A DNA stretch of 64,000 nucleotides from a phage. The stretch's first letter is position 1. Every line of letters begins with the position of its first letter. This document shows positions 3,682-54,053 of the stretch, piece by piece. The DNA lies in assembly GCA_018175075.1 (NCBI GenBank), contig GCA_018175075.1_4100.1; one strand, given 5' to 3'. The position numbers and the translations under genes were made by a program. The notes below the pieces were generated by a model. That model was given only the letters and a program-made list of their open reading frames with translations. It was not told where the DNA came from and did not search any database.

Positions 3682-4032
3682 ATGAAAATTATTTTATTTT
3701 TTGTATGTATGTTAATGTGTGGATTGTCATATGCTGAACCATTGGAAGGTTTAGTTTGTACAGATGGTAATATTAAACATATCTATCAAGGTGATAGTGA
3801 CGATCGAGATATTGTATATATTGATGGACAATCATATACGTTTGTTAAAGAGCATACAGTAGGCGACATTAGCTTCACTGAGTTTTCTAACGACACAGAC
3901 CCTAACTTCTTAGCGTTTATTGAAGTAGATGTATATGAAGATAGTAATGGCACACAATATGCTAAATTAGTTATGATGCGTCGTGGTGCTAAAGAAACTA
4001 GTTTTGGTGGCTTGTGTAAATATAAGGATTGA
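3682..4032 (+). CDS. secreted small protein (signal peptide), 116 aa
   Basis: GGAGGA RBS; signal peptide; similar architecture to 2931-3290. Confidence 0.55.
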   Translation: MKIILFFVCMLMCGLSYAEPLEGLVCTDGNIKHIYQGDSDDRDIVYIDGQSYTFVKEHTVGDISFTEFSNDTDPNFLAFIEVDVYEDSNGTQYAKLVMMRRGAKETSFGGLCKYKD

Positions 4033-4036
4033 TATT

Positions 4037-4228
4037 ATGTTGATTTATCAAAGTGATAATATTCGTGTTATGCAGCATCCCTACTTACAAATCTTTGATG
4101 TGCAGCAGTATATGGAAGGTGATGACCCAAGAACCTATGGTCGTAAGTATGATTACTTCACTGTAAAGCAGTGTAATAATATTAACGAAGTACGACAATT
4201 AGTTCAAGAACTTCAAAACAAAGGTTGA
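4037..4228 (+). CDS. hypothetical protein, 63 aa
   Basis: ATG with AAGGA RBS; stop lies inside terminator stem. Confidence 0.45.
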   Translation: MLIYQSDNIRVMQHPYLQIFDVQQYMEGDDPRTYGRKYDYFTVKQCNNINEVRQLVQELQNKG

Positions 4229-28210: not shown

Positions 28211-29401
28211 TTACAATTGTCTAGGTGTATCCAGTACATATCTATTTGTACGAGGACCACCATCATCATGCGTTCCGGTTGAATATATATTTTTCATATC
28301 AGCAGTTAGGAAAGTACGATACGAACCGCGATATATTTTAATTTTATCATACATAGAATATGTTATTCCTGACGGCAATGGACATGCAGTAAATTTACCA
28401 ATGGTAACATTAGAACCAACACCTAATGTACCAGCATAACCACTCGCATTTAAACCAGTTGCATATACACCTGTACTCGTAACTAGTATACTAGATTGTG
28501 ATGCATATCCAGTATGGATTGAATAATAAGTTCCTGATGGTAATGTAGTACTATTATTCCCTAATACTGCTAGTGCTGTACTATTCGTAGTGTTATTACC
28601 CCATGCCCCATTATTAGCTAATCCACCAACTAGAAACTGACGTGCTCCTGTATTTGGATTCTCCACTAAAGCACTGACAGCACCAAATGAACAAACAGTA
28701 TATTGTAATGTTTTTGTATATGTGGTACTTGGCTTATACAAAGTATATTCATTAAATGGTGTCCATGTGGTACTAGTACTTATGCCAGATGTACTACCAC
28801 CAATATATAAATTATTTTGTGTATCAAAAAACATTGCACAGTAATTTGTTGACTGTATTTGTGCAATATCTACATCTGGTGTTACCGCTTTAACAAATGA
28901 ACCATCTGATATTTGATAAGTAGTTCCTGTACCATCTGCGAATTGTCTAGCACTATTCCACCCTGTACTCCATATTGTATTATTATCCATTAAGAAAGTA
29001 AACCACGTAGTACCTGCATACATCTGTTTAATTGAAGTACTTGAACTTTGTGTGTACAAATTTTCAATATATTGGTTATAACTTAAAAATGATGTAGTAC
29101 TAGTTTCTAAACCAATATGACTACCATATCCACAATAAAAATAATTTAAGTCATTATCTTGTACTAACAAAGTTCCTTGTGTCATCCAGCAATCTTTGAC
29201 ATTTTCTCTAATTAATGTCCACGACCTTACTGCATTATTATTTCCTCTACCAAACTTCCCATAACTATTACTGCCTCGTGCGTATAGTTGACCGTCGGTA
29301 TAAAGTACAACAACCTCAGTATCAGTTGGTATTATTTTCTTAATTTGTAGTGGTACAGGCACAATATTCCCATAATTCATCATTCTTGCAAAAGGTAACA
29401 T
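28211..29401 (-). CDS. RCC1-like repeat protein paralog H, 396 aa
   Basis: MLPFARMMNYGNI; repeats SNSYGKFGRG, GYAGTLGVG. Confidence 0.7.
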   Translation of the reverse strand: MLPFARMMNYGNIVPVPLQIKKIIPTDTEVVVLYTDGQLYARGSNSYGKFGRGNNNAVRSWTLIRENVKDCWMTQGTLLVQDNDLNYFYCGYGSHIGLETSTTSFLSYNQYIENLYTQSSSTSIKQMYAGTTWFTFLMDNNTIWSTGWNSARQFADGTGTTYQISDGSFVKAVTPDVDIAQIQSTNYCAMFFDTQNNLYIGGSTSGISTSTTWTPFNEYTLYKPSTTYTKTLQYTVCSFGAVSALVENPNTGARQFLVGGLANNGAWGNNTTNSTALAVLGNNSTTLPSGTYYSIHTGYASQSSILVTSTGVYATGLNASGYAGTLGVGSNVTIGKFTACPLPSGITYSMYDKIKIYRGSYRTFLTADMKNIYSTGTHDDGGPRTNRYVLDTPRQL

Positions 29402-29472
29402 AATTCCCCTCCTTATTCATTATACTATATTTAATACAAATAAGAAAGCCAGTATCAAGTACTGGCCTATAT
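29402..29472 (-). promoter_or_regulatory. late-type cassette: terminator hairpin, TATAAT, GGAGG RBS
   Basis: GCCAGTA-TCAA-GTACTGGC hairpin plus TATAAT/RBS. Confidence 0.55.
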
Positions 29473-30642
29473 TTAAACTGGCGAATCTAATATAAATTCT
29501 AAACTACTAATGCCACCATATGTGACATCTGTTCCCGTGCTATATACAAAATTACCATCAGTTATATAAGTTCGGTTATAACTACCTGCCATCTGTGACT
29601 TACTATAATCAAACCCATCAGGTACGATTGCTTTGGTATATACTAATGCATTAGTAGATGTACCAATACCTAACATACCAGCTTGTGTAGATTGATTGTA
29701 GCCGCAACAATATATACCATCTGTTGTAGCAATAACTTGGTTATAATATGAAGTATTGTTAGCAATGCTTACTACATCACCAGGTGGCATTAGTGATGCT
29801 GTTTGTACCTCAAATGCTCTATAATCTTTGAGAGAACCATCTTTCCCATCTGCTTGTGCACCAAATATTCTTGAACCACCATTTGCGATGATAGTTTTAC
29901 CAGTGGGATCAGTGCCTATTGCCATTGCCATTGAAGTACCATTATTCACATAGTACTTTATATTAATTGTATTACTTAAGCTGGTAGGAGCACCATAATA
30001 TATATTATATAACTTACTTCCTGAACTTGTAACTGCATTGACTCTTCCTGTATAAAATAACCATCCTTGGTTTGTAACATAACCGTGCATTAAATTACTT
30101 GCAAACAATTTAACAGGTAATTGATTTGCTGCGGTAGGAACAGTACTTTTGACGAATCTACCAGAAACATGGTTAATTGTTGTCCCATCACCCAACTGAC
30201 CATCCGACCCTACTCCAGTACTCCATATTGTTTGGTCTGATAGTAACACACTTGTAGTCTGATAACTAACGGCTATATCTAATATTGGTAATGTTAATGT
30301 ATTGAATATAGGCATAGCAGATGTCCATATTGATACTCCTGACCCTTTCATACCAACAGTTGTTGAACTTCCACTGTACCATATTTCATTATTGCTTTTC
30401 TTAACAACTATCGACGTGGCACCCATCCAAAAATCTTCAACACCAGAAGTACTAAAAGTCCATGTAGTAACAGTATTTTTGTGACCTAAACCCAAAATAC
30501 CATATGCATTATCACCACGCACATATAAATCACCACTGTTTGTTAAAACAGCAACATTATAGTTGTTAGCAAGTATTTTTTTAATATTTGGTTTATCAGG
30601 TGCAATATTCCCGTACTTAAACATCCTCGCAAAAGGTAACAT
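29473..30642 (-). CDS. RCC1-like repeat protein paralog I, 389 aa
   Basis: MLPFARMFKYGNIAP; repeats DNAYGILGLG, SDGQLGDG, TQAGMLGIG. Confidence 0.7.
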   Translation of the reverse strand: MLPFARMFKYGNIAPDKPNIKKILANNYNVAVLTNSGDLYVRGDNAYGILGLGHKNTVTTWTFSTSGVEDFWMGATSIVVKKSNNEIWYSGSSTTVGMKGSGVSIWTSAMPIFNTLTLPILDIAVSYQTTSVLLSDQTIWSTGVGSDGQLGDGTTINHVSGRFVKSTVPTAANQLPVKLFASNLMHGYVTNQGWLFYTGRVNAVTSSGSKLYNIYYGAPTSLSNTINIKYYVNNGTSMAMAIGTDPTGKTIIANGGSRIFGAQADGKDGSLKDYRAFEVQTASLMPPGDVVSIANNTSYYNQVIATTDGIYCCGYNQSTQAGMLGIGTSTNALVYTKAIVPDGFDYSKSQMAGSYNRTYITDGNFVYSTGTDVTYGGISSLEFILDSPV

Positions 30643-30711
30643 ATTTCCTCCTTATTCATTATACTATATTTAATACAAATAAGAATGCCAGTATCAAGTA
30701 CTGGCATTATG
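30643..30711 (-). promoter_or_regulatory. late-type cassette: terminator hairpin, TATAAT, GGAGG RBS
   Basis: GCCAGTATCAAGTACTGGC hairpin plus TATAAT/RBS. Confidence 0.55.
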
Positions 30712-31821
30712 TTATTTTGGTAAATCAATTTTAGTAAAGACTGCAACATCTGCACTTGCACCTGGAATGGCGTAATACGATCCAGTACTATATACATTCC
30801 CGTCTTTGGTTAATAATGATGTTAATCCGTCACTAAAAGCAACATCACTAATCTCACTAACTTCTACAGGTAATTGTAAATTAGCAGCACTATAGATAGC
30901 ACCCGTTTGAGAATTGTTTAATCCCAAACCACGGTTTCCCCCAATACCTTTCTGATATGCACTAGTTAATATAATTTGCGTAGCCGTGCTTGTTGCCTCT
31001 GAATTTGTCATAAACAAAGGTGAATTATTAGGTAAAGTACTTACAGGAACTGCTTTGAATGTAGTTGAATCTGAACTAAGAAAGTTTGGAGTTGTACCAC
31101 ATGTGAAATATGATGTACCATTATAGTAATTGAGTGTATGTCCACCAATAGCTGCATCTATTACACCAGAACTACGCAGTCCCCAAATGTTAACTTGTGT
31201 TCTGTTCCCTGTGCCATGTAATCCACGGTCATTCCACCCTGAACTATATAACTTATTATCTATGCTAATATACATACTATCATTAGGAGTAGACATAACT
31301 TTACGCACATTAGAAGCACATAGTGTTAATGTATATATTGATGAAGAACCAATCCCCAATACACCACGGTATCCATTAGCCCCAGCACCATAGAGTACTG
31401 AACTTGAACTTAGTACAAATATTACACCACTATTGCATACAATATTAGCAATTTGATTCACTGGTATTGTATTTGTAAACCACTCGGTTCTATCAACTAA
31501 TGTAGTACTGTAAGAAGTAGTTGTAGAAGATGTGAACCAGTACGTTTGACCTGATGTCCATATCGTATTATCATTTTTAATAATAACAAGTGTTCGTCCT
31601 CCAGTGAAAAAATTAGAAACATCTGCACTTACTAATATCCATGAAGATACCGTGTTGGTATTACCATTTCCAGATTCACCACCTTGATTTCTGCCTATGT
31701 AATACAATTCATGTGAATCAGTCAATACGAATTGACCTTGAGTAGAAGCACCAACTTTAATTATATTTTTAGGACCAGAGGTAATATTCCCATAATCAAA
31801 TAGTCTTACAAAAGGTAACAT
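30712..31821 (-). CDS. RCC1-like repeat protein paralog J, 369 aa
   Basis: start at MLPFVRLFDYGNI; RBS overlaps stop of K (TAGGAGGGAATATG). Confidence 0.65.
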   Translation of the reverse strand: MLPFVRLFDYGNITSGPKNIIKVGASTQGQFVLTDSHELYYIGRNQGGESGNGNTNTVSSWILVSADVSNFFTGGRTLVIIKNDNTIWTSGQTYWFTSSTTTSYSTTLVDRTEWFTNTIPVNQIANIVCNSGVIFVLSSSSVLYGAGANGYRGVLGIGSSSIYTLTLCASNVRKVMSTPNDSMYISIDNKLYSSGWNDRGLHGTGNRTQVNIWGLRSSGVIDAAIGGHTLNYYNGTSYFTCGTTPNFLSSDSTTFKAVPVSTLPNNSPLFMTNSEATSTATQIILTSAYQKGIGGNRGLGLNNSQTGAIYSAANLQLPVEVSEISDVAFSDGLTSLLTKDGNVYSTGSYYAIPGASADVAVFTKIDLPK

Positions 31822-31829
31822 ATTCCCTC

Positions 31830-33032
31830 CTATTGTTGCCATAACTGCGTTGGCATTAATGTTAGTGTAGTAATACTATAAGTGCCATCAGGCAATCTAC
31901 CACCATTACCATTCCAGCCACCACATGCATATAATTTATAATCTTTAGTAATTATTATGGTTCTGCTCCAATCTTTAGATGCCATAAGAACATTGTCATA
32001 ACCACCACTTATTGCACTAAGATTAAAAATAGCCCAAGTCTTAACTAATGTATTAGTTCCATTACCTTCTTGACCATATGAGTTAGGACCACTACTTCTA
32101 ACATATGGTGCGTATTGTGCCATAGGTGAACCAATTGATGCATTTCCCATATTACTTGGACAAATAAAATTACTGTACTTACTTACATCAACCGTGACCG
32201 ATGTATTCCTAATTGGTGTTAGCTGATTTACTGATGTAGTCGTACCATTACCAGCTTGTCCAGTATTGTTAGACCCACTATAATATACAGGCCCACCAGT
32301 AGTAAACCACCAAGTAACATTGTATGTAGTACTAATATGTTCTACATTACTAATCACGAATTTGTTCAAATATACAACAGAACTACCACCACATCCACTT
32401 TCACCAAAGTTATCCTTACCACAAAACCATGCATCTTTATTTGATTTAATATAGTGCGTTCCTTGTAATGAACATGCCATATCTATAACTTCACCCATAT
32501 TAGTCATAACTGTTAGTGTAGGGATTGAATTTTGATTACCCGACCCACATTCACCATTAGTATTTTTTCCACACGCAATTACTCTACCATCTGTTAATAA
32601 TATTCTAGTACTTTCACCTATATATACACTCTTGATCATATTAGCCATTACGCCAATTTTATTAAATGAAGCAGTAACATCAGTCCATGTTCTCAAATAA
32701 CCACTAACAGGTGTTGCATCTCCATAATCAGAAAATGCACCCACCGACCCAGTGTAGTATATTTTATTATCCAAATCAACCATCAATGAACCATGAACAC
32801 CCAGCCAATAGGCTGCACAGTTACGTGCAAGTACAGTAAATGACGGAACTGCTGCTGAATTCCCAAGACCAAATTGAGACATGTTATTACTACCATAACC
32901 ATATAAAGTATTAGTTGGGCTATGTAGATACATACAGTTTGTATAATGTTGTTGTAAAACATCTGAGAACTCTATAGGTTCTGGCCCTGGTGCAATATTA
33001 CCGTACTTAACCATTCTAGCAAAAGGTAACAT
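31830..33032 (-). CDS. RCC1-like repeat protein paralog K, 400 aa
   Basis: MLPFARMVKYGNIAP; repeats NNMSQFGLG, SYGQEGNG. Confidence 0.7.
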   Translation of the reverse strand: MLPFARMVKYGNIAPGPEPIEFSDVLQQHYTNCMYLHSPTNTLYGYGSNNMSQFGLGNSAAVPSFTVLARNCAAYWLGVHGSLMVDLDNKIYYTGSVGAFSDYGDATPVSGYLRTWTDVTASFNKIGVMANMIKSVYIGESTRILLTDGRVIACGKNTNGECGSGNQNSIPTLTVMTNMGEVIDMACSLQGTHYIKSNKDAWFCGKDNFGESGCGGSSVVYLNKFVISNVEHISTTYNVTWWFTTGGPVYYSGSNNTGQAGNGTTTSVNQLTPIRNTSVTVDVSKYSNFICPSNMGNASIGSPMAQYAPYVRSSGPNSYGQEGNGTNTLVKTWAIFNLSAISGGYDNVLMASKDWSRTIIITKDYKLYACGGWNGNGGRLPDGTYSITTLTLMPTQLWQQ

Positions 33033-33104
33033 ATTTCCCTCCTTTATTCATTATATTATATTTAATCAAAAATAAAAGCCAGTACTTGAGTACTGGCATA
33101 TCAA
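33033..33104 (-). promoter_or_regulatory. late-type cassette: terminator hairpin, TATAAT, GGAGG RBS
   Basis: perfect palindrome GCCAGTACT-TGA-AGTACTGGC plus TATAAT/RBS. Confidence 0.55.
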
Positions 33105-34271
33105 TTACGAAAAACGTGGATCATCAAGAACAAACACGGTACTACTTGGACCACCTTGTGTGGTGACAGCACTAGTACTGTAAAGAAAGTTACCATCTGT
33201 CATATAAGTTCTACGATTCGTACAAATAACTCTTACTTTATTCATATCGATATCAGGATTAGGTAATGGACATGAAGTATACACTGATACATCAGTACTT
33301 GTTCCTATTCCCAGCGTACCTTCATTTGTGGTTGAACCGCTATTCAACCCACTAGCATATATACCACTGCTTGTAATAACAAAAGTGGCGTAGAATGGAG
33401 AACCTTCACCTATATTTAATTTAGTTCCAGGTGGTTGTCTTGCCGCAGCAACCGCACCATATGCTTTCCCACCAGATGTGGCAAGATTACCAAGAGCACC
33501 ATACTGTTGTTGTCCACCATTATACACTGTGTTAGTGCCATCACTGTTAGTGTGGATACCAATAGAATTATAGTTACTGTTGCTATATACTAAAGCGGCA
33601 TTAGAAGTAACTGTATTTCGTGTATATACTTTATATTGTTGGGTAAAATTACCACTAGTGGACGTACCCTGTACAGTTCCAGTGTAGTATATATATCCGT
33701 CTGTACCAATGAATGAGTGCATAACACTACCTGCAAAAATTTTTTCTGGAGTAACACCTGACGGTATTGTTGATTGTACAAATCTACCCACTACATTTGT
33801 TGTTGTATTATTTCCCAATTGACCGGAGTCACCATAACCACTTGACCATATGGTATTGTTCTCAAGAAGAACACTAATTGATAATCTTGATAAAGCTATT
33901 TCTTTAACATCACTTTCTAATGTATCAAAAAATGAAGTACAATTTGTCCAAGTGTTCACTACGCTAGAACTAACACCAATTTGTTTATTATCACCAGAAC
34001 TATAATAATTCCCATCATATGTTTGTATAAGTATAACAGAACCACCAACCCATACTTTATCAACTGAACCAAACGTTCTTGTCCATGTGGTAACTATATC
34101 CCCGCTATTATTACCCAATCCAAAGCAACCACTACTATCTACGCCTCGTACATATAAATCTCCTGAAGTCATCAGAACTGCACAGAATGATTGTGCACCT
34201 TTAACATCTTTAATTGGCTCTGGTTCAGGTGCAACATTTCCATAATCAAACATTCTAACAAAAGGTAACAT
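33105..34271 (-). CDS. RCC1-like repeat protein paralog L, 388 aa
   Basis: start at MLPFVRMFDYGNV; repeats DSGQLGNN, NEGTLGIG; first gene of the cluster. Confidence 0.7.
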   Translation of the reverse strand: MLPFVRMFDYGNVAPEPEPIKDVKGAQSFCAVLMTSGDLYVRGVDSSGCFGLGNNSGDIVTTWTRTFGSVDKVWVGGSVILIQTYDGNYYSSGDNKQIGVSSSVVNTWTNCTSFFDTLESDVKEIALSRLSISVLLENNTIWSSGYGDSGQLGNNTTTNVVGRFVQSTIPSGVTPEKIFAGSVMHSFIGTDGYIYYTGTVQGTSTSGNFTQQYKVYTRNTVTSNAALVYSNSNYNSIGIHTNSDGTNTVYNGGQQQYGALGNLATSGGKAYGAVAAARQPPGTKLNIGEGSPFYATFVITSSGIYASGLNSGSTTNEGTLGIGTSTDVSVYTSCPLPNPDIDMNKVRVICTNRRTYMTDGNFLYSTSAVTTQGGPSSTVFVLDDPRFS

Positions 34272-34373
34272 ATTTCCTCCTTTATTCATTATATCATATT
34301 TACCCCATAAACAAAACCCTTGACAACCTTCCAGTACTGGTGTACTATAGAAGGAATATAAGGAGAACTACAC
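34272..34373. promoter_or_regulatory. divergent promoter region
   Basis: plus strand TTGACA (34320), 17 nt, TACTAT; minus strand TATAAT plus AGGAGG for paralog L. Confidence 0.5.
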
Positions 34374-35832: not shown

Positions 35833-36012
35833 ATGCAAGAATTCTATATCTATAAACTTCAGCACAAAGATAGATACAACTATAATAAATTCCAAAGGTA
35901 CTACACAGTCGGGAACAAAAGAGATAAAAAACGATACTTTCTATCATGTACAGTAGAAGCACAAAACGAAAAGTACACGTACAGAGAAGTACTGAAACTC
36001 ATCTCTATGTAA
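35833..36012 (+). CDS. tandem family 1 small protein, 59 aa
   Basis: MQEFYIYKL...YTYREVLKLISM; below track size cutoff. Confidence 0.45.
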   Translation: MQEFYIYKLQHKDRYNYNKFQRYYTVGNKRDKKRYFLSCTVEAQNEKYTYREVLKLISM

Positions 36013-39756: not shown

Positions 39757-39950
39757 ACGGATTTTGGGCGTAGTTACCCTGGATGGATTTTGGGCGTAGA
39801 TATGTCTAGCCCTCCAGAAGTCTGGAAGTAAAGATGGCTATCCATCTAGACGGCTAAACGGCTAGATTTCTGGATGGCTGGATGGCTAGACGTTTGGACG
39901 GCTAAACGGCTAGATGGTTACACGTCTGGAAGTATAGACGGCTAAATCAA
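39757..39950. repeat. iteron-like short repeat cluster
   Basis: GGATTTTGGGCGTAG twice; at least 7 copies of (A/G)ACGGCTA/GATGGCTA within about 110 bp; TCTGGAAG three times. Confidence 0.55.
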
Positions 39951-42167: not shown

Positions 42168-42196
42168 TTGACTTATTTTGTCAGTACTGGCATAAT
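42168..42196 (+). promoter_or_regulatory. sigma70-like promoter with no ORF downstream
   Basis: TTGACT, 17 nt, CATAAT; downstream is repeat element, not coding. Confidence 0.4.
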
Positions 42197-42219
42197 GTAT
42201 TCATTGGCAGATAAGCCGT

Positions 42220-42247
42220 AGCCCATAGGGTGCGGGAGTGTATCTAT
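42220..42247 (+). repeat. AGCCCA(N)AGGGTGC element, forward copy
   Basis: AGCCCATAGGGTGCGGGAGTGTATCTAT; inverted partner GCACCCGGTGGG at 42279-42290. Confidence 0.45.
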
Positions 42248-42384
42248 AGAAAAATTAGTTTAGTATAGTTACAATTGTGCACCCGGTGGGTTAGCTGTTG
42301 TCATGGGGTATATTATGCCAGTACTGGATAGTGCTGTCAATACTTTTTTAATATTCAGTACTGAAAACTATTTTTAAAAAGTAC

Positions 42385-42412
42385 TTGCAAACTATGTTTA
42401 AAGGCGTATAAT
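42385..42412 (+). promoter_or_regulatory. class-I early promoter driving candidate ncRNA
   Basis: TTGCAA, 16 nt, TATAAT, GTTTTACATC. Confidence 0.55.
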
Positions 42413-42418
42413 GTTTTA

Positions 42419-42502
42419 CATCAGGACGGGGAACGAAATAAGTAACTTCCCGTTAAGTAGCCCAGGAGTAAGGCACACGAAAAACTCCCCTGATAAAATA
42501 GT
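42419..42502 (+). ncRNA. candidate structured RNA, copy 1
   Basis: about 80 nt without ATG; internal hairpin CGGGGAA...TTCCCG and terminal ATCAGG...CCTGAT pairing; near-identical copy at 53635. Confidence 0.4.
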
Positions 42503-42530
42503 TTGACAATTGTTTTTAAAAGCGTATAAT
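42503..42530 (+). promoter_or_regulatory. sigma70-like promoter
   Basis: TTGACA, 16 nt, TATAAT. Confidence 0.55.
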
Positions 42531-42562: not shown

Positions 42563-43174
42563 ATGAAAACTATCACTACTACTACTTTCGTTATGGATTT
42601 TTCTGAATTGAACGCAGAACAAAAAACGTCAGCTATCGAACTGGTTCGGGAACGTGAAAAAAACTCAAACGACAATTATTTTTCTGAAAGTGAAATTGAA
42701 TACTATAAAGAAACAGTACTACCGGAATATGGCATTAATGACGCTGAAATACAATTCAGTGGCTTTTGGTCCCAGGGTGACGGTGCATCAATCAGTACTG
42801 ACCACGTTGACGCAGTGAAGTTTTTACGCAAGGTAAGAGCATTAACTAAGTATCGCTCAATCCGTCACCTGCTGAATGAAGATGATTTGGCGATGAGTGT
42901 AAAGCGTTCGCACTCCCACTACTCGCATGAGAATACTGTAAGCGGGTACATTGAATCGGCTTACACTGATTTAACCGCAAAACAAGAAACGTTAGTTAAT
43001 GAGCTTGAGGAACTACTCACTGAAACTATTCGTGAATTGTCCCGCAAGTTGTACCGTGATTTAGAGAATGCATATGAGGATCAATTCACCACTGAAAACA
43101 TTACGGCACTGATTGAGGGTAACGAATATCAATTCAATGTTATTGATGGCGTAGTAGAATCAATCGAATATTAA
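42563..43174 (+). CDS. hypothetical acidic protein, 203 aa
   Basis: GAGGG RBS; acidic; WSQGDGASI and HSHYSHEN motifs. Confidence 0.55.
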   Translation: MKTITTTTFVMDFSELNAEQKTSAIELVREREKNSNDNYFSESEIEYYKETVLPEYGINDAEIQFSGFWSQGDGASISTDHVDAVKFLRKVRALTKYRSIRHLLNEDDLAMSVKRSHSHYSHENTVSGYIESAYTDLTAKQETLVNELEELLTETIRELSRKLYRDLENAYEDQFTTENITALIEGNEYQFNVIDGVVESIEY

Positions 43175-45832: not shown

Positions 45833-45860
45833 TTGACATTACCGCAAAAAGGCGTAGAAT
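45833..45860 (+). promoter_or_regulatory. sigma70-like promoter
   Basis: TTGACA, 16 nt, TAGAAT. Confidence 0.5.
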
Positions 45861-45866
45861 ATATTA

Positions 45867-45945
45867 CATCAAGACGGGGAGCACTAAGTAGACCGCCAGT
45901 AAGTCGAACGAAAAACTGGACACGTCGAGAAAACTTTGATACACT
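45867..45945 (+). ncRNA. candidate structured RNA, divergent copy 3 (or long 5' leader of 45984 gene)
   Basis: shares CATCARGACGGGGA, AGTAAG and ACGAAAAACT blocks with copies at 42419 and 53635; no ORF. Confidence 0.3.
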
Positions 45946-45983: not shown

Positions 45984-46466
45984 ATGGCTAATGTAAAATC
46001 ATTCATCAAAGCACTGGTAGCAAATGAAACTAACGTCGCGGCTGAGATCCTGGCTGAACTGGATAACGATACCATGAAAGCGGTACGCAATAATTTTAAC
46101 ATCGCTTACAGTACTGCGAAAGAACTACAAGCAAATAAAGCGGCAGAAATTGAAGCGGCAAAGGCGGCCCGTGAAGCAGAACTACAAGCAACAATTGAAA
46201 GTATTCAGGCGGCAGTAGTTGGATTGGATCTGGAAGTAGTTACAGAGATGGCACAAAAAGCCCTGGCGAAAAAGTACGGTGAAGATAAGCCAGAAGTAAA
46301 AGCTAAAAAATGGATTCAAGAACGTGTAGCGGTAGTACTTGATAACGGGGAAGAATATCTGATTCCGGTGCGTGGTAACTGCATTGCGGTAGTACTGGAT
46401 GCGATTAACTCCAGTGGTATGACTCGCGAGGAATGGATCGAAGCTCATCGCAAAGTTGAAGCATAA
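45984..46466 (+). CDS. hypothetical protein, 160 aa (Ala/Glu-rich)
   Basis: ATG with GAGGA RBS. Confidence 0.55.
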   Translation: MANVKSFIKALVANETNVAAEILAELDNDTMKAVRNNFNIAYSTAKELQANKAAEIEAAKAAREAELQATIESIQAAVVGLDLEVVTEMAQKALAKKYGEDKPEVKAKKWIQERVAVVLDNGEEYLIPVRGNCIAVVLDAINSSGMTREEWIEAHRKVEA

Positions 46467-49539: not shown

Positions 49540-49567
49540 AGCCCACAGGGTGCGGAAGTGTATCTAT
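49540..49567 (+). repeat. AGCCCACAGGGTGC element, forward copy
   Basis: AGCCCACAGGGTGCGGAAGTGTATCTAT between terminator and promoter. Confidence 0.45.
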
Positions 49568-53600: not shown

Positions 53601-53628
53601 TTGCATTGTACTTAGAATAAAGTATAAT
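53601..53628 (+). promoter_or_regulatory. class-I early promoter driving candidate ncRNA
   Basis: TTGCAT, 16 nt, TATAAT, GTTTTACATC. Confidence 0.55.
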
Positions 53629-53634
53629 GTTTTA

Positions 53635-53715
53635 CATCAGGACGGGGAACGAAACAAGTAACCCCGTTAAGTAGTCCAGGAGTAAGACATACGAAAAACT
53701 CCCCTGATAAAATAG
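53635..53715 (+). ncRNA. candidate structured RNA, copy 2
   Basis: near-identical to 42419-42502 with stem changes that keep pairing (CGGGG...CCCCG); no ORF. Confidence 0.4.
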
Positions 53716-53777: not shown

Positions 53778-54053
53778 ATGCGGATTCTACTGACAGCTAA
53801 CGAAATCGAACAAGTACTGACTACTAACCTGGAAGACTGGAAACGTGAAGCAGATATCCAGGCGGTTCAACAGCTTAACGATGAGTTAACGCCGGATGAC
53901 TTAAGCAAGATTGTAGATCCTCAATTCTACGAAGATATCCACGACACCGCGTTAAGCGTCGAGGATGTACTAGATAAGCACTACATTGATATTGATTTGC
54001 AGGTTTACGGTCGTAAAAACTTTATCACTATTCACGACATTTACAATAATTAA
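53778..54053 (+). CDS. hypothetical acidic protein, 91 aa
   Basis: ATG with AAGGAAA RBS. Confidence 0.55.
   Translation: MRILLTANEIEQVLTTNLEDWKREADIQAVQQLNDELTPDDLSKIVDPQFYEDIHDTALSVEDVLDKHYIDIDLQVYGRKNFITIHDIYNN

Follow-up and report, generated by a model that had tools for sequence, protein, structure and literature searches.

A putative pseudoknotted RNA domain in the early leaders of a jumbo coliphage and its relatives in T7-like phages

Introduction

During infection by T7 the left-end DNA enters the cell first, pulled in by host transcription, and the transcript that starts at the first early promoter, A1, continues past A2 and A3 as far as gene 0.3. Small pseudoknots are known from the preQ1-I aptamers, which combine short S1 and S2 helices with an A-rich L3, and a precedent for a pseudoknotted decoy is provided by the type III antitoxin ToxI and by phage escape through pseudo-ToxI. 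When CRISPRi is directed at A1 of T7 and A2 and A3 are left free, lysis is strongly delayed (PMC11863960). In the enterobacterial phage HK022 the put RNAs (putL and putR), ORF-less multi-helix RNAs of ~70 nt which lie directly after early sigma-70 promoters, modify the polymerase without protein factors (PMC9378689).

Here a short non-coding stretch of a jumbo coliphage is compared with these systems. Its core is the same as that of a stretch between A1 and A2 of T7, its size, multi-helix fold and promoter-proximal position resemble those of put, and its order of helices is that of the preQ1-I type. The full text of the literature yielded no description of the motif, with the older T7 papers in subscription journals falling outside the coverage, and it is apparently undescribed.

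Promoters and the non-coding stretch of copy 1

The window, i.e., the whole stretch of 64,000 nt that was analysed (contig GCA_018175075.1_4100.1), derives from an Asteriusvirus jumbo coliphage with 95–98% identity to PBECO4, 121Q, G17 and phAPEC6 (about 350 kb). The early-gene region, which occupies its second half, is built of near-identical cassettes in the order A-tract, AAAAAGTACTTGCAA, 16 nt, TATAAT, GTTTTAC-ATCGAGAG, a short GGGGAA..TTCCCC hairpin, a ribosome-binding site and a small gene. The first promoter of copy 1 belongs to a set of about 24 nearly identical promoter cassettes in the window, and the motif AAAAGTACTTGCAAACT has nine occurrences vs 0.03 expected. The initial annotation of the locus had described a promoter, a stretch devoid of ORFs and a second promoter driving the gene at 42563, an arrangement which was borne out in full:

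42376–42412, plus strand: first promoter of copy 1, sigma-70, with A-tract AAAAAGTAC, −35 TTGCAA at 42385–42390 and −10 TATAAT at 42407–42412
42420–42494, plus strand: structured RNA, probably a leader, about 75 nt from the inferred +1 at A42420, three-way junction in the folds
42503–42530, plus strand: second promoter of copy 1, TTGACA-16-TATAAT, 12/12 consensus match
42563–43174, plus strand: gene after copy 1, 203 aa, PHROG 5162

The first promoter, TTGCAA-16-TATAAT (42385–42412), matches the consensus at 10/12 positions and has AAAAAGTAC directly 5', whilst the second is the best promoter match in the 12 kb scanned and leads into a short, unstructured leader and the gene at 42563–43174. 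The +1 was placed at A42420 from the homologous T7 A1, which has an annotated +1 and an identical layout of −10, spacer and ATC; an element of about 75 nt results, slightly shorter than the ~80 nt first proposed, although the 80-nt string quoted at that time is indeed found at 42419–42501.

ATG, GTG and TTG are all absent from 42420 to 42502. The sole ATG (42411) falls within the −10 hexamer, and it is there that the 31-codon ORF called by the ORF finder opens; in relatives the corresponding frame encodes 31, 15, 26, 31, 14, 13 and 15 aa, and it is absent in copy 3. A small protein-coding gene was therefore rejected, given the position of this ATG inside the −10 and a reading frame that is not conserved. 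ARAGORN detected no tRNA or tmRNA genes in the window, and Rfam 15 produced no match in the window at gathering score; with E up to 10 there was one chance-level match (Methylobacterium-1, 14.6 bits, the gathering score being 40), and the T7 region had none.

Fold of the copy 1 RNA

Copy 1 folds, both as a single sequence and as an alignment, into a three-way junction of P1, P2 and P3. The terminal complementarity AUCAGG/CCUGAU and the internal hairpin ACGGGG...CCCGU (42426–42453), which had been noticed previously, were recovered by both procedures. The parts are as follows:

42420–42425, plus strand: P1 5' strand AUCAGG, pairs with CCUGAU at 42489–42494 in both folds
42489–42494, plus strand: P1 3' strand CCUGAU, in the single-sequence and alignment folds
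42426–42453, plus strand: P2 hairpin ACGGGG(AA)...(UU)CCCGU, variable loop with AAGUAAC, in both folds
42454–42488, plus strand: conserved core of UAAGUA, S1a, P3, UAA, S1b and A-rich loop, predicted H-type pseudoknot
42460–42462, plus strand: S1a GCC, pairs with S1b GGC at 42472–42474
42465–42468, plus strand: P3 5' strand GGAG, with the P3 3' strand CUCC at 42485–42488

The P3 loop is 16 nt in length, with the A-rich loop ACACGAAAAA placed between S1b and the P3 3' strand, and the core is matched by the covariance model at 42450–42496 with 58.8 bits. Taken alone, the folding energy of copy 1 is unremarkable (z = −1.75 and −2.99), and since these scores are modest the evidence for structure is the comparison with relatives. 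Indels in P2 of the relatives are confined to the loop and changes from G-C to G-U preserve the pairing; within the window-type subfamily the helices are invariant and the variation lies in the P2 loop. The best explanation for 42420–42494 is a predicted pseudoknotted RNA domain of ~75 nt at the extreme 5' end of the transcript that host sigma-70 RNA polymerase begins from 42385–42412.

Several other structures were considered and rejected. In a 148-nt fold of copy 1 the junction paired with the ribosome-binding site of the gene that follows, but this pairing was not conserved in copy 2. Comparisons made by eye with a hammerhead (CUGAU..GAAA in the wrong order), an HDV-like nested pseudoknot (strand order differs), a sarcin-ricin/loop-E motif (strand polarity wrong), RfaH ops and ToxI were all unconvincing.

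Two further copies in the window

The exact core pattern YAAGUAG-N8/9-UAAG-N4-A(C/A/U)GAAAA occurs at 42454, 45885 and 53668 of the window (three vs 0.00 expected), and the core covariance model R1 finds exactly three matches, at 42450–42496, 45881–45927 and 53664–53710, scoring 50–62 bits with E about 1e-9 to 1e-12, values which are rough for a short-calibrated model; nothing further falls below E=1. The three copies that had been counted at the outset are therefore the three matched by the model, copy 2 being alike and copy 3 divergent:

53601–53628, plus strand: copy 2 promoter, TTGCAT-16-TATAAT
53636–53708, plus strand: copy 2 element, covariance-model match 53664–53710, 61.6 bits
53717–53744, plus strand: copy 2 second promoter, TTGACA-16-TATAAT
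53778–54053, plus strand: gene after copy 2, follows the second promoter
45833–45860, plus strand: copy 3 promoter, TTGACA-16-TAGAAT
45868–45940, plus strand: copy 3 element, divergent, covariance-model match 45881–45927, 50.3 bits

Copy 2 has a layout nearly identical to that of copy 1, second consensus promoter included. Copy 3 is the leader of the gene at 45984–46466 and has only a weak 9/12 promoter-like site downstream; its closing helix is in two parts (AUCAAG-ACG / CGU...CUUUGAU) and the P2 hairpin is absent. The S1 pairing is GCC:GGC in copy 1, GUC:GAC in copy 2 and GAC:GUC in copy 3, and P3 in the window takes the forms GGAG/CUCC and, in copy 3, CCAG/CUGG. The genes which follow the three copies are mutually unrelated, and the element would thus serve the transcript or the cell and not a particular gene.

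For the gene after copy 2 (53778–54053), the first ~57 nt, which is the part that was compared, is identical in the unrelated Justusliebigvirus muut (L004 2643–2918), pointing to a probable recent transfer of the promoter-element-promoter-gene cassette as a whole.

Relatives in T7 and other phages

An 85-nt element 88–100% identical to that of the window is present in 45 phage records, which beyond Asteriusvirus comprise the unrelated Justusliebigvirus of 137–147 kb (muut, outra, EmilieFrey) and the Vequintavirinae (A73, W70, A7_1); the latter two groups carry the same promoter-element-promoter module with different genes behind it. Among jumbo phages, Justusliebigvirus and Vequintavirinae, about 60 records contain related sequence, with variants in the distant jumbo phages Munch, 7t3, K64-1, RaK2 and Erwinia phage Hallingskeid.

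The search with copy 3 returned an unexpected match to T7-like Yersinia phages near position 550. In T7 itself the core UAAGUAG-N8/9-UAAG-N4-ACGAAAA is the same at nt 551–581, and nt 551–587 (UAAGUAGACAGCCUGAUAAGUCGCACGAAAAACAGG) lies within the A1 transcript (+1 = 498), adjoining the −35 hexamer of A2. The T7 member of the motif extends over nt ~536–593 of NC_001604, between A1 and A2, where the annotation of that record has no RNA feature. The two regions are homologous: the core (UAAGUAG-N-UAAG-N4-ACGAAAAAC) is identical, the pseudoknot of S1 and P3 is shared, UAAGUAG is immediately preceded by a hairpin in both, and each has a strong sigma-70 early promoter 5' and a second promoter 3', and the initial transcribed ATCGAGAG of A1 is common to other window promoters. 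T7 differs in having an extra 5' hairpin, so that the motif starts at about +38, in a closing helix which is a P2 loop:tail pseudoknot overlapping the A2 −35 and not a helix with the 5' end, in carrying one copy per genome, and in a boxA further downstream.

A blastn search with the T7 stretch retrieved 488 phage records, including T7, T3, phiYeO3-12, K1F and the KP32-like phages of Klebsiella, with one copy each and typically about 0.5 kb from the left end; the total for the motif is ~550 phage records. A pattern scan of IMG/VR added about 30 T7-like contigs, in which the motif is 55–65 nt 3' of the first early promoter. Across the window and the relatives tested it is in the sense orientation and no more than about 100 nt 3' of a strong sigma-70 early promoter, and the promoter-element-promoter layout recurs in copy 2, muut, A73, EmilieFrey, T7 (A1 then A2) and Munch/L013/K64-1. 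In records with defined ends, i.e., the T7-likes, Asteriusvirus with terminal repeats, Munch and fENko-Kae01, the element is 0.5–6 kb from the left end and points inward. This distribution shows early promoter-leader cassettes to be, as far as sequence comparison goes, units of horizontal transfer between phage families.

The named hosts are all Enterobacterales with the exception of one Aeromonas phage. The motif was absent from bacterial genomes, one per species, of 185,579 species and from 5,426 E. coli genomes including their prophages, and on this ground a host-derived sequence or a host antisense target was rejected.

The upstream A-tract and the initial transcribed ATCGAGAG are common to the early promoters of the jumbo phage and T7 A1 (window promoters at, e.g., 40679, 41820, 46661, 56865 and 57723 compared with T7 nt 450–510, L015), and whole promoter-leader cassettes therefore appear, on sequence likeness, to have been exchanged between podoviruses and jumbo myoviruses.

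Covariation of the helices

Overall the motif consists of a closing helix, made by a 5' strand and the tail after P3, an optional P2, the invariant UAAGUA and an H-type pseudoknot. The pattern by which most loci were found prescribes part of the core but not the stems, and how conserved the core looks is to that extent built in.

S1 is formed by a GNC 5' of P3 and a GN'C within the loop of P3, so that an A-rich strand (ACGAAAAA) is left over. At its middle position S1 has A-U in 15 sequences, U-A in five and C-G in three, with one mismatch (23/24 paired), and because this pair covaries the core is taken to be an H-type pseudoknot with an A-rich third loop. P3, which flanks a loop of 16–17 nt, reads CCUG/CAGG, CUUG/CAAG, CCAG/CUGG or GGAG/CUCC across all groups (24 sequences), with 94% of the cells paired and both CG/GC and UA/AU swaps.

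In the T7-likes the 5' strand of the closing helix sits in the P2 loop, giving a second pseudoknot, and the model tested for this group comprised the P2 hairpin, the P2-loop:tail pseudoknot, S1 and P3. Among 20 T7-like sequences 93% of pair cells are paired, vs 11–35% when the partners are slid, and compensatory changes affect 11/18 pairs, a figure reached by 0/500 shuffles, counts which, as the sequences are related, should not be read as probabilities. The hairpin equivalent to P2 covaries as well. The P2-loop:tail pairing is GUCAA:UUGAC where the tail doubles as the A2 −35, and where the next promoter is further off both sides change (GAUUAG:CUAAUC, GUCGGU:ACCGAC, GUCAUC:GAUGAC, GUCAC:GUGAC); since this happens where there is no promoter overlap, the promoter is ruled out as the cause of the complementarity.

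As the closing helix is invariant in the window-type subfamily, its support comes from the other subfamilies, where it is CGGCG/UGYCG (Munch and L013), GCGAC/GUUGC (K64-1) or in two parts (copy 3, LTH01 and Hallingskeid). The tails of other subfamilies are poorer partners for a given 5' region than its own tail is, and in an own-vs-cross duplex permutation 0/20000 arrangements were as good as the true pairing. Covariation in these alignments supports four predicted pairings, namely S1 and P3 of the H-type pseudoknot, P2 and the closing helix. We hold with high confidence that the stretch at 42420–42494 is a real, non-coding, structured RNA.

Leader domain or separate RNA gene

The initial annotation had taken the element for a candidate ncRNA of its own. 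That it is transcribed, non-coding and structured stands, with helices that covary across hundreds of phages; what finds no support is a stand-alone gene of ~80 nt, as no terminator is present. A promoter of its own it does have (42385–42412), but neither a terminator nor a defined 3' end: no intrinsic terminator follows any of the three copies, and after copy 1, whose tail is AAAAUAGUUUGACA, there is no terminator-like site between 42494 and 44638, the position of the next.

A second strong promoter stands behind the element in most lineages. In the uncultured podovirus-like contigs L034 and L089 the early leader comes after terminase and lysis genes; the second promoter is absent from it, and only boxA and the first gene follow. 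Because the strong second promoter is missing in these two and in copy 3, the element there is the 5' leader of the next gene. In T7, going by its annotation, the homologous stretch is inside the A1 transcript. The missing terminator, the read-through from A1 and the loci that have no second promoter together argue for a leader domain and against an independent sRNA gene; leader status is strongly suggested, and we place moderate confidence in this assignment. A long 5' untranslated region, which was initially put forward as the outcome that would overturn the ncRNA reading, is consequently the more likely state of affairs. It is possible that a processed fragment of the leader acts in trans.

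In podoviruses the leaders contain a further signal. An exact rrn-type boxA (GCTCTTTAACA) lies 23–381 nt 3' of the motif in ~24 of ~38 podovirus loci from several subfamilies, and it is just 23–29 nt away, with no intervening promoter, in L034 and L089. T7-like early leaders commonly have an exact rrn-type boxA (CGCTCTTTAACA) 3' of the motif, as in these stretches:

L034, 4113–4180
L089, 5388–5460
T7 (L015), 806–818

This recurrence of boxA 3' of the motif suggests that the podovirus leaders are built for Nus-dependent elongation control. Here the element resembles the lambda nut and rrn leaders in that it shares an untranslated leader with an exact rrn-type boxA and precedes it, in the place that boxB has in rrn. 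It differs in being much larger than boxB and pseudoknotted, and the jumbo-phage copies have no boxA. We know of no N-like protein in the phages that bear the motif. The window's one exact rrn-type boxA (3842–3854, minus strand) was discarded, as it seems to lie antisense within a gene of the plus strand, and the three elements have none nearby.

Possible functions

The best explanation that we can offer is a leader-domain RNA with a put-like effect in cis on host elongation, a plausible reading to which we give somewhat less than an even chance. The element would fold on leaving the polymerase and would bind a component of the host elongation or termination machinery, either the polymerase itself or Nus/Rho factors. 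Polymerases from the first promoter of the early unit would in this way become less prone to pausing or termination, as with HK022 put, and transcription would pass the next promoter into the downstream genes, the element being part of that transcript. A host-specific partner fits with named hosts that are Enterobacterales save for the one Aeromonas phage.

The mechanism is nevertheless weakly supported, and several observations tell against it. The transcripts from the second promoters (T7 A2/A3; 42503–42530) are made without the element, so that the downstream genes can be expressed without it. Antitermination would seem to be little needed, in that most jumbo-phage genes 3' of terminators have their own promoters, and the three window copies lack boxA. 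The strongly conserved unpaired bases would suit a ligand or protein aptamer of any kind. To our knowledge a terminator-resistant polymerase has not been reported in decades of in-vitro work with T7 A1, in which many templates truncate the leader. HK022 put, finally, shows no sequence or covariance-model similarity (R1 against the whole HK022 genome, filters off, best match 9 bits, E=1), and homology with put was rejected on this basis. The put RNAs have two long stem-loops with a triplex in place of an H-type pseudoknot, and their activity has been demonstrated, so that the likeness should be considered one of functional analogy. HK022 is also temperate, whereas the phages bearing the motif are virulent.

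Taken against the alternatives, an effect in cis on the host elongation complex is tentatively favoured, and after it come, in order, a decoy acting in trans, protection of the 5' end and the sensing of a ligand. The main rival supposes that the first promoter serves to produce the pseudoknot in quantity within seconds of the onset of infection and that the excised RNA, cut by RNase III at R0.3 in T7 and here possibly within the A/U-rich tail by RNase E, sequesters a host protein, for which a defence nuclease or toxin, Hfq or an RNase has been proposed. A sponge of this kind would account for a module of own promoter and element that moves among unrelated virulent phages and stands before unrelated genes, for the higher dosage given by three copies in the jumbo phage, for a gene served by a separate strong promoter just behind, and for the absence of the motif from bacterial and E. 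coli genomes, prophages included. ToxI and pseudo-ToxI are likewise pseudoknotted, phage-borne and abundantly transcribed non-coding RNAs. They differ in that the element is single-copy and not tandem, with neither a toxin partner nor convincing sequence similarity; no toxin gene is nearby, the neighbouring genes giving no PADLOC or Pfam match above the curated cut-offs. The lack of a terminator or defined 3' end and the plain mRNA leaders of L034, L089 and copy 3 also weigh against such a decoy. Targets complementary to the element, which had been suggested as worth searching for, amounted in the window to chance-level 9–10-mers only, and antisense targets there were rejected. On balance we regard sequestration in trans as unlikely.

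Protection of the 5' end is a good deal less likely. It holds that the element is an elaborate form of the simple 5' hairpin found in this phage's other early leaders and that, with the first transcribed nucleotides paired, RppH and RNase E are kept from the triphosphate end and the early mRNA is stabilised, in keeping with a P1 that begins at the inferred +1 in copies 1, 2 and 3 and with ~20 other window promoters which have ACATCGAGAG and the GGGGAA..TTCCCC hairpin at the equivalent place. For this purpose a plain hairpin would suffice, and the invariant unpaired bases and two pseudoknots would be superfluous; moreover, the T7-like motif starts at about +38, behind another hairpin, and the second-promoter transcripts are devoid of it.

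Still more improbable is an aptamer in which the H-type pseudoknot, with its A-rich third loop, senses a small molecule reporting the state of the host and tunes read-through of the first transcript. The likeness to the preQ1-I type is real in the order S1a-S2a-S1b-(A-rich loop)-S2b, in short S1 and S2, an A-rich L3, invariant loop and junction bases and covarying stems. Yet even with E up to 10 no riboswitch or ribozyme model of Rfam matches the window region or that of T7, a link to queuosine genes is lacking, the genes that follow the element are unrelated, and no expression platform can be recognised (neither a terminator nor a sequestered ribosome-binding site and start codon).

A site acting at the level of DNA, such as a UP-like or architectural site of the second promoter, or else a leader cassette that lost its gene, is very improbable and largely refuted: T7 ACGAAAAACAGGTA does abut the A2 −35 and resemble the A-tract upstream of A1, and the window's promoter cassettes have clearly been duplicated and shuffled, but a UP element is rejected by a distance from core to next −35 that varies from 5 to more than 50 bp and by loci that have no next promoter, and a decayed cassette by compensatory changes in four helices, unexpected in duplex DNA or a relic, and by conservation in ~550 phage records, which is contrary to decay.

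To return to the put-like effect in cis, it may be extended into a broader proposal, of which we are doubtful: beside put, the motif would form an independent second class of RNAs that act without protein factors, and from within the leading ~80 nt of the earliest transcript it would reprogram the elongation complex of the host or some other host machine, having been spread by horizontal exchange of promoter-leader modules among T7-like podoviruses and jumbo and large myoviruses. Were this the case, it would explain why, in the entry of the genome and in timing, A1 of T7 matters more than A2/A3.

Provided that the structure has a function, the first transcript of T7 has carried an unrecognised double-pseudoknotted RNA, a module which virulent enterobacterial phages of very different kinds have passed among themselves. 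Whether polymerase modifier, decoy or sensor, it would add a layer of RNA to the first minute of infection, which today is explained almost wholly by proteins, e.g., Ocr and the T7 kinase. With its genetics, in-vitro A1 transcription and genome-entry assays, T7 offers a tractable test system for a motif of a poorly studied 350-kb phage.

Other features of the window

Some additional features of the window were recorded alongside the element. Just 5' of copy 1 are two convergent promoters with a TGn-extended −10 (plus strand 42168–42196; minus strand 42340–42312), each then followed by a short conserved (A)GCCCAYNGGGTGC motif, which appears again on the plus strand at 49542, 51197, 53532, 56805 and 59064. 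The arrangement at 42168–42340 may give rise to short convergent transcripts or to a bidirectional stop.

The hexamer AGTACT occurs 283 times in the whole window vs about 22 expected from base composition, most densely at 36000–60000, and CAGTACTG occurs 64 times. AGTACT is located in the upstream and spacer regions of promoters (AAAAAGTACTTGCAA; TAGTACTGTATAAT), which suggests a phage-specific regulatory or protein-binding word.

A G+C-rich hairpin, GGnTTGACTyCGGTCAGCC, followed by a T-run has ten plus-strand copies, at 4225, 7465, 8227, 10072, 11158, 16074, 49487, 53482, 56750 and 59014. A −35-like TTGACT lies within the stem and a −10-like sequence comes after it (GCTATTATAT at most sites), so these hairpins look like candidate terminator-promoter fusions bounding transcription units.

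Tandem 8-nt units (GGATGGCT, AGACGGCT and AAACGGCT) fill 39816–39943. On the minus strand, 22400–34300 holds about ten paralogous genes that recur every ~1.2 kb and have in common a conserved N-terminus (MLPFARMVKYGNI) and, upstream, a conserved TTATTCATTATACTATATTTAAT; a similar array of paralogues is present in Erwinia phage Hallingskeid, where it carries the annotation 'regulator of chromosome condensation'.
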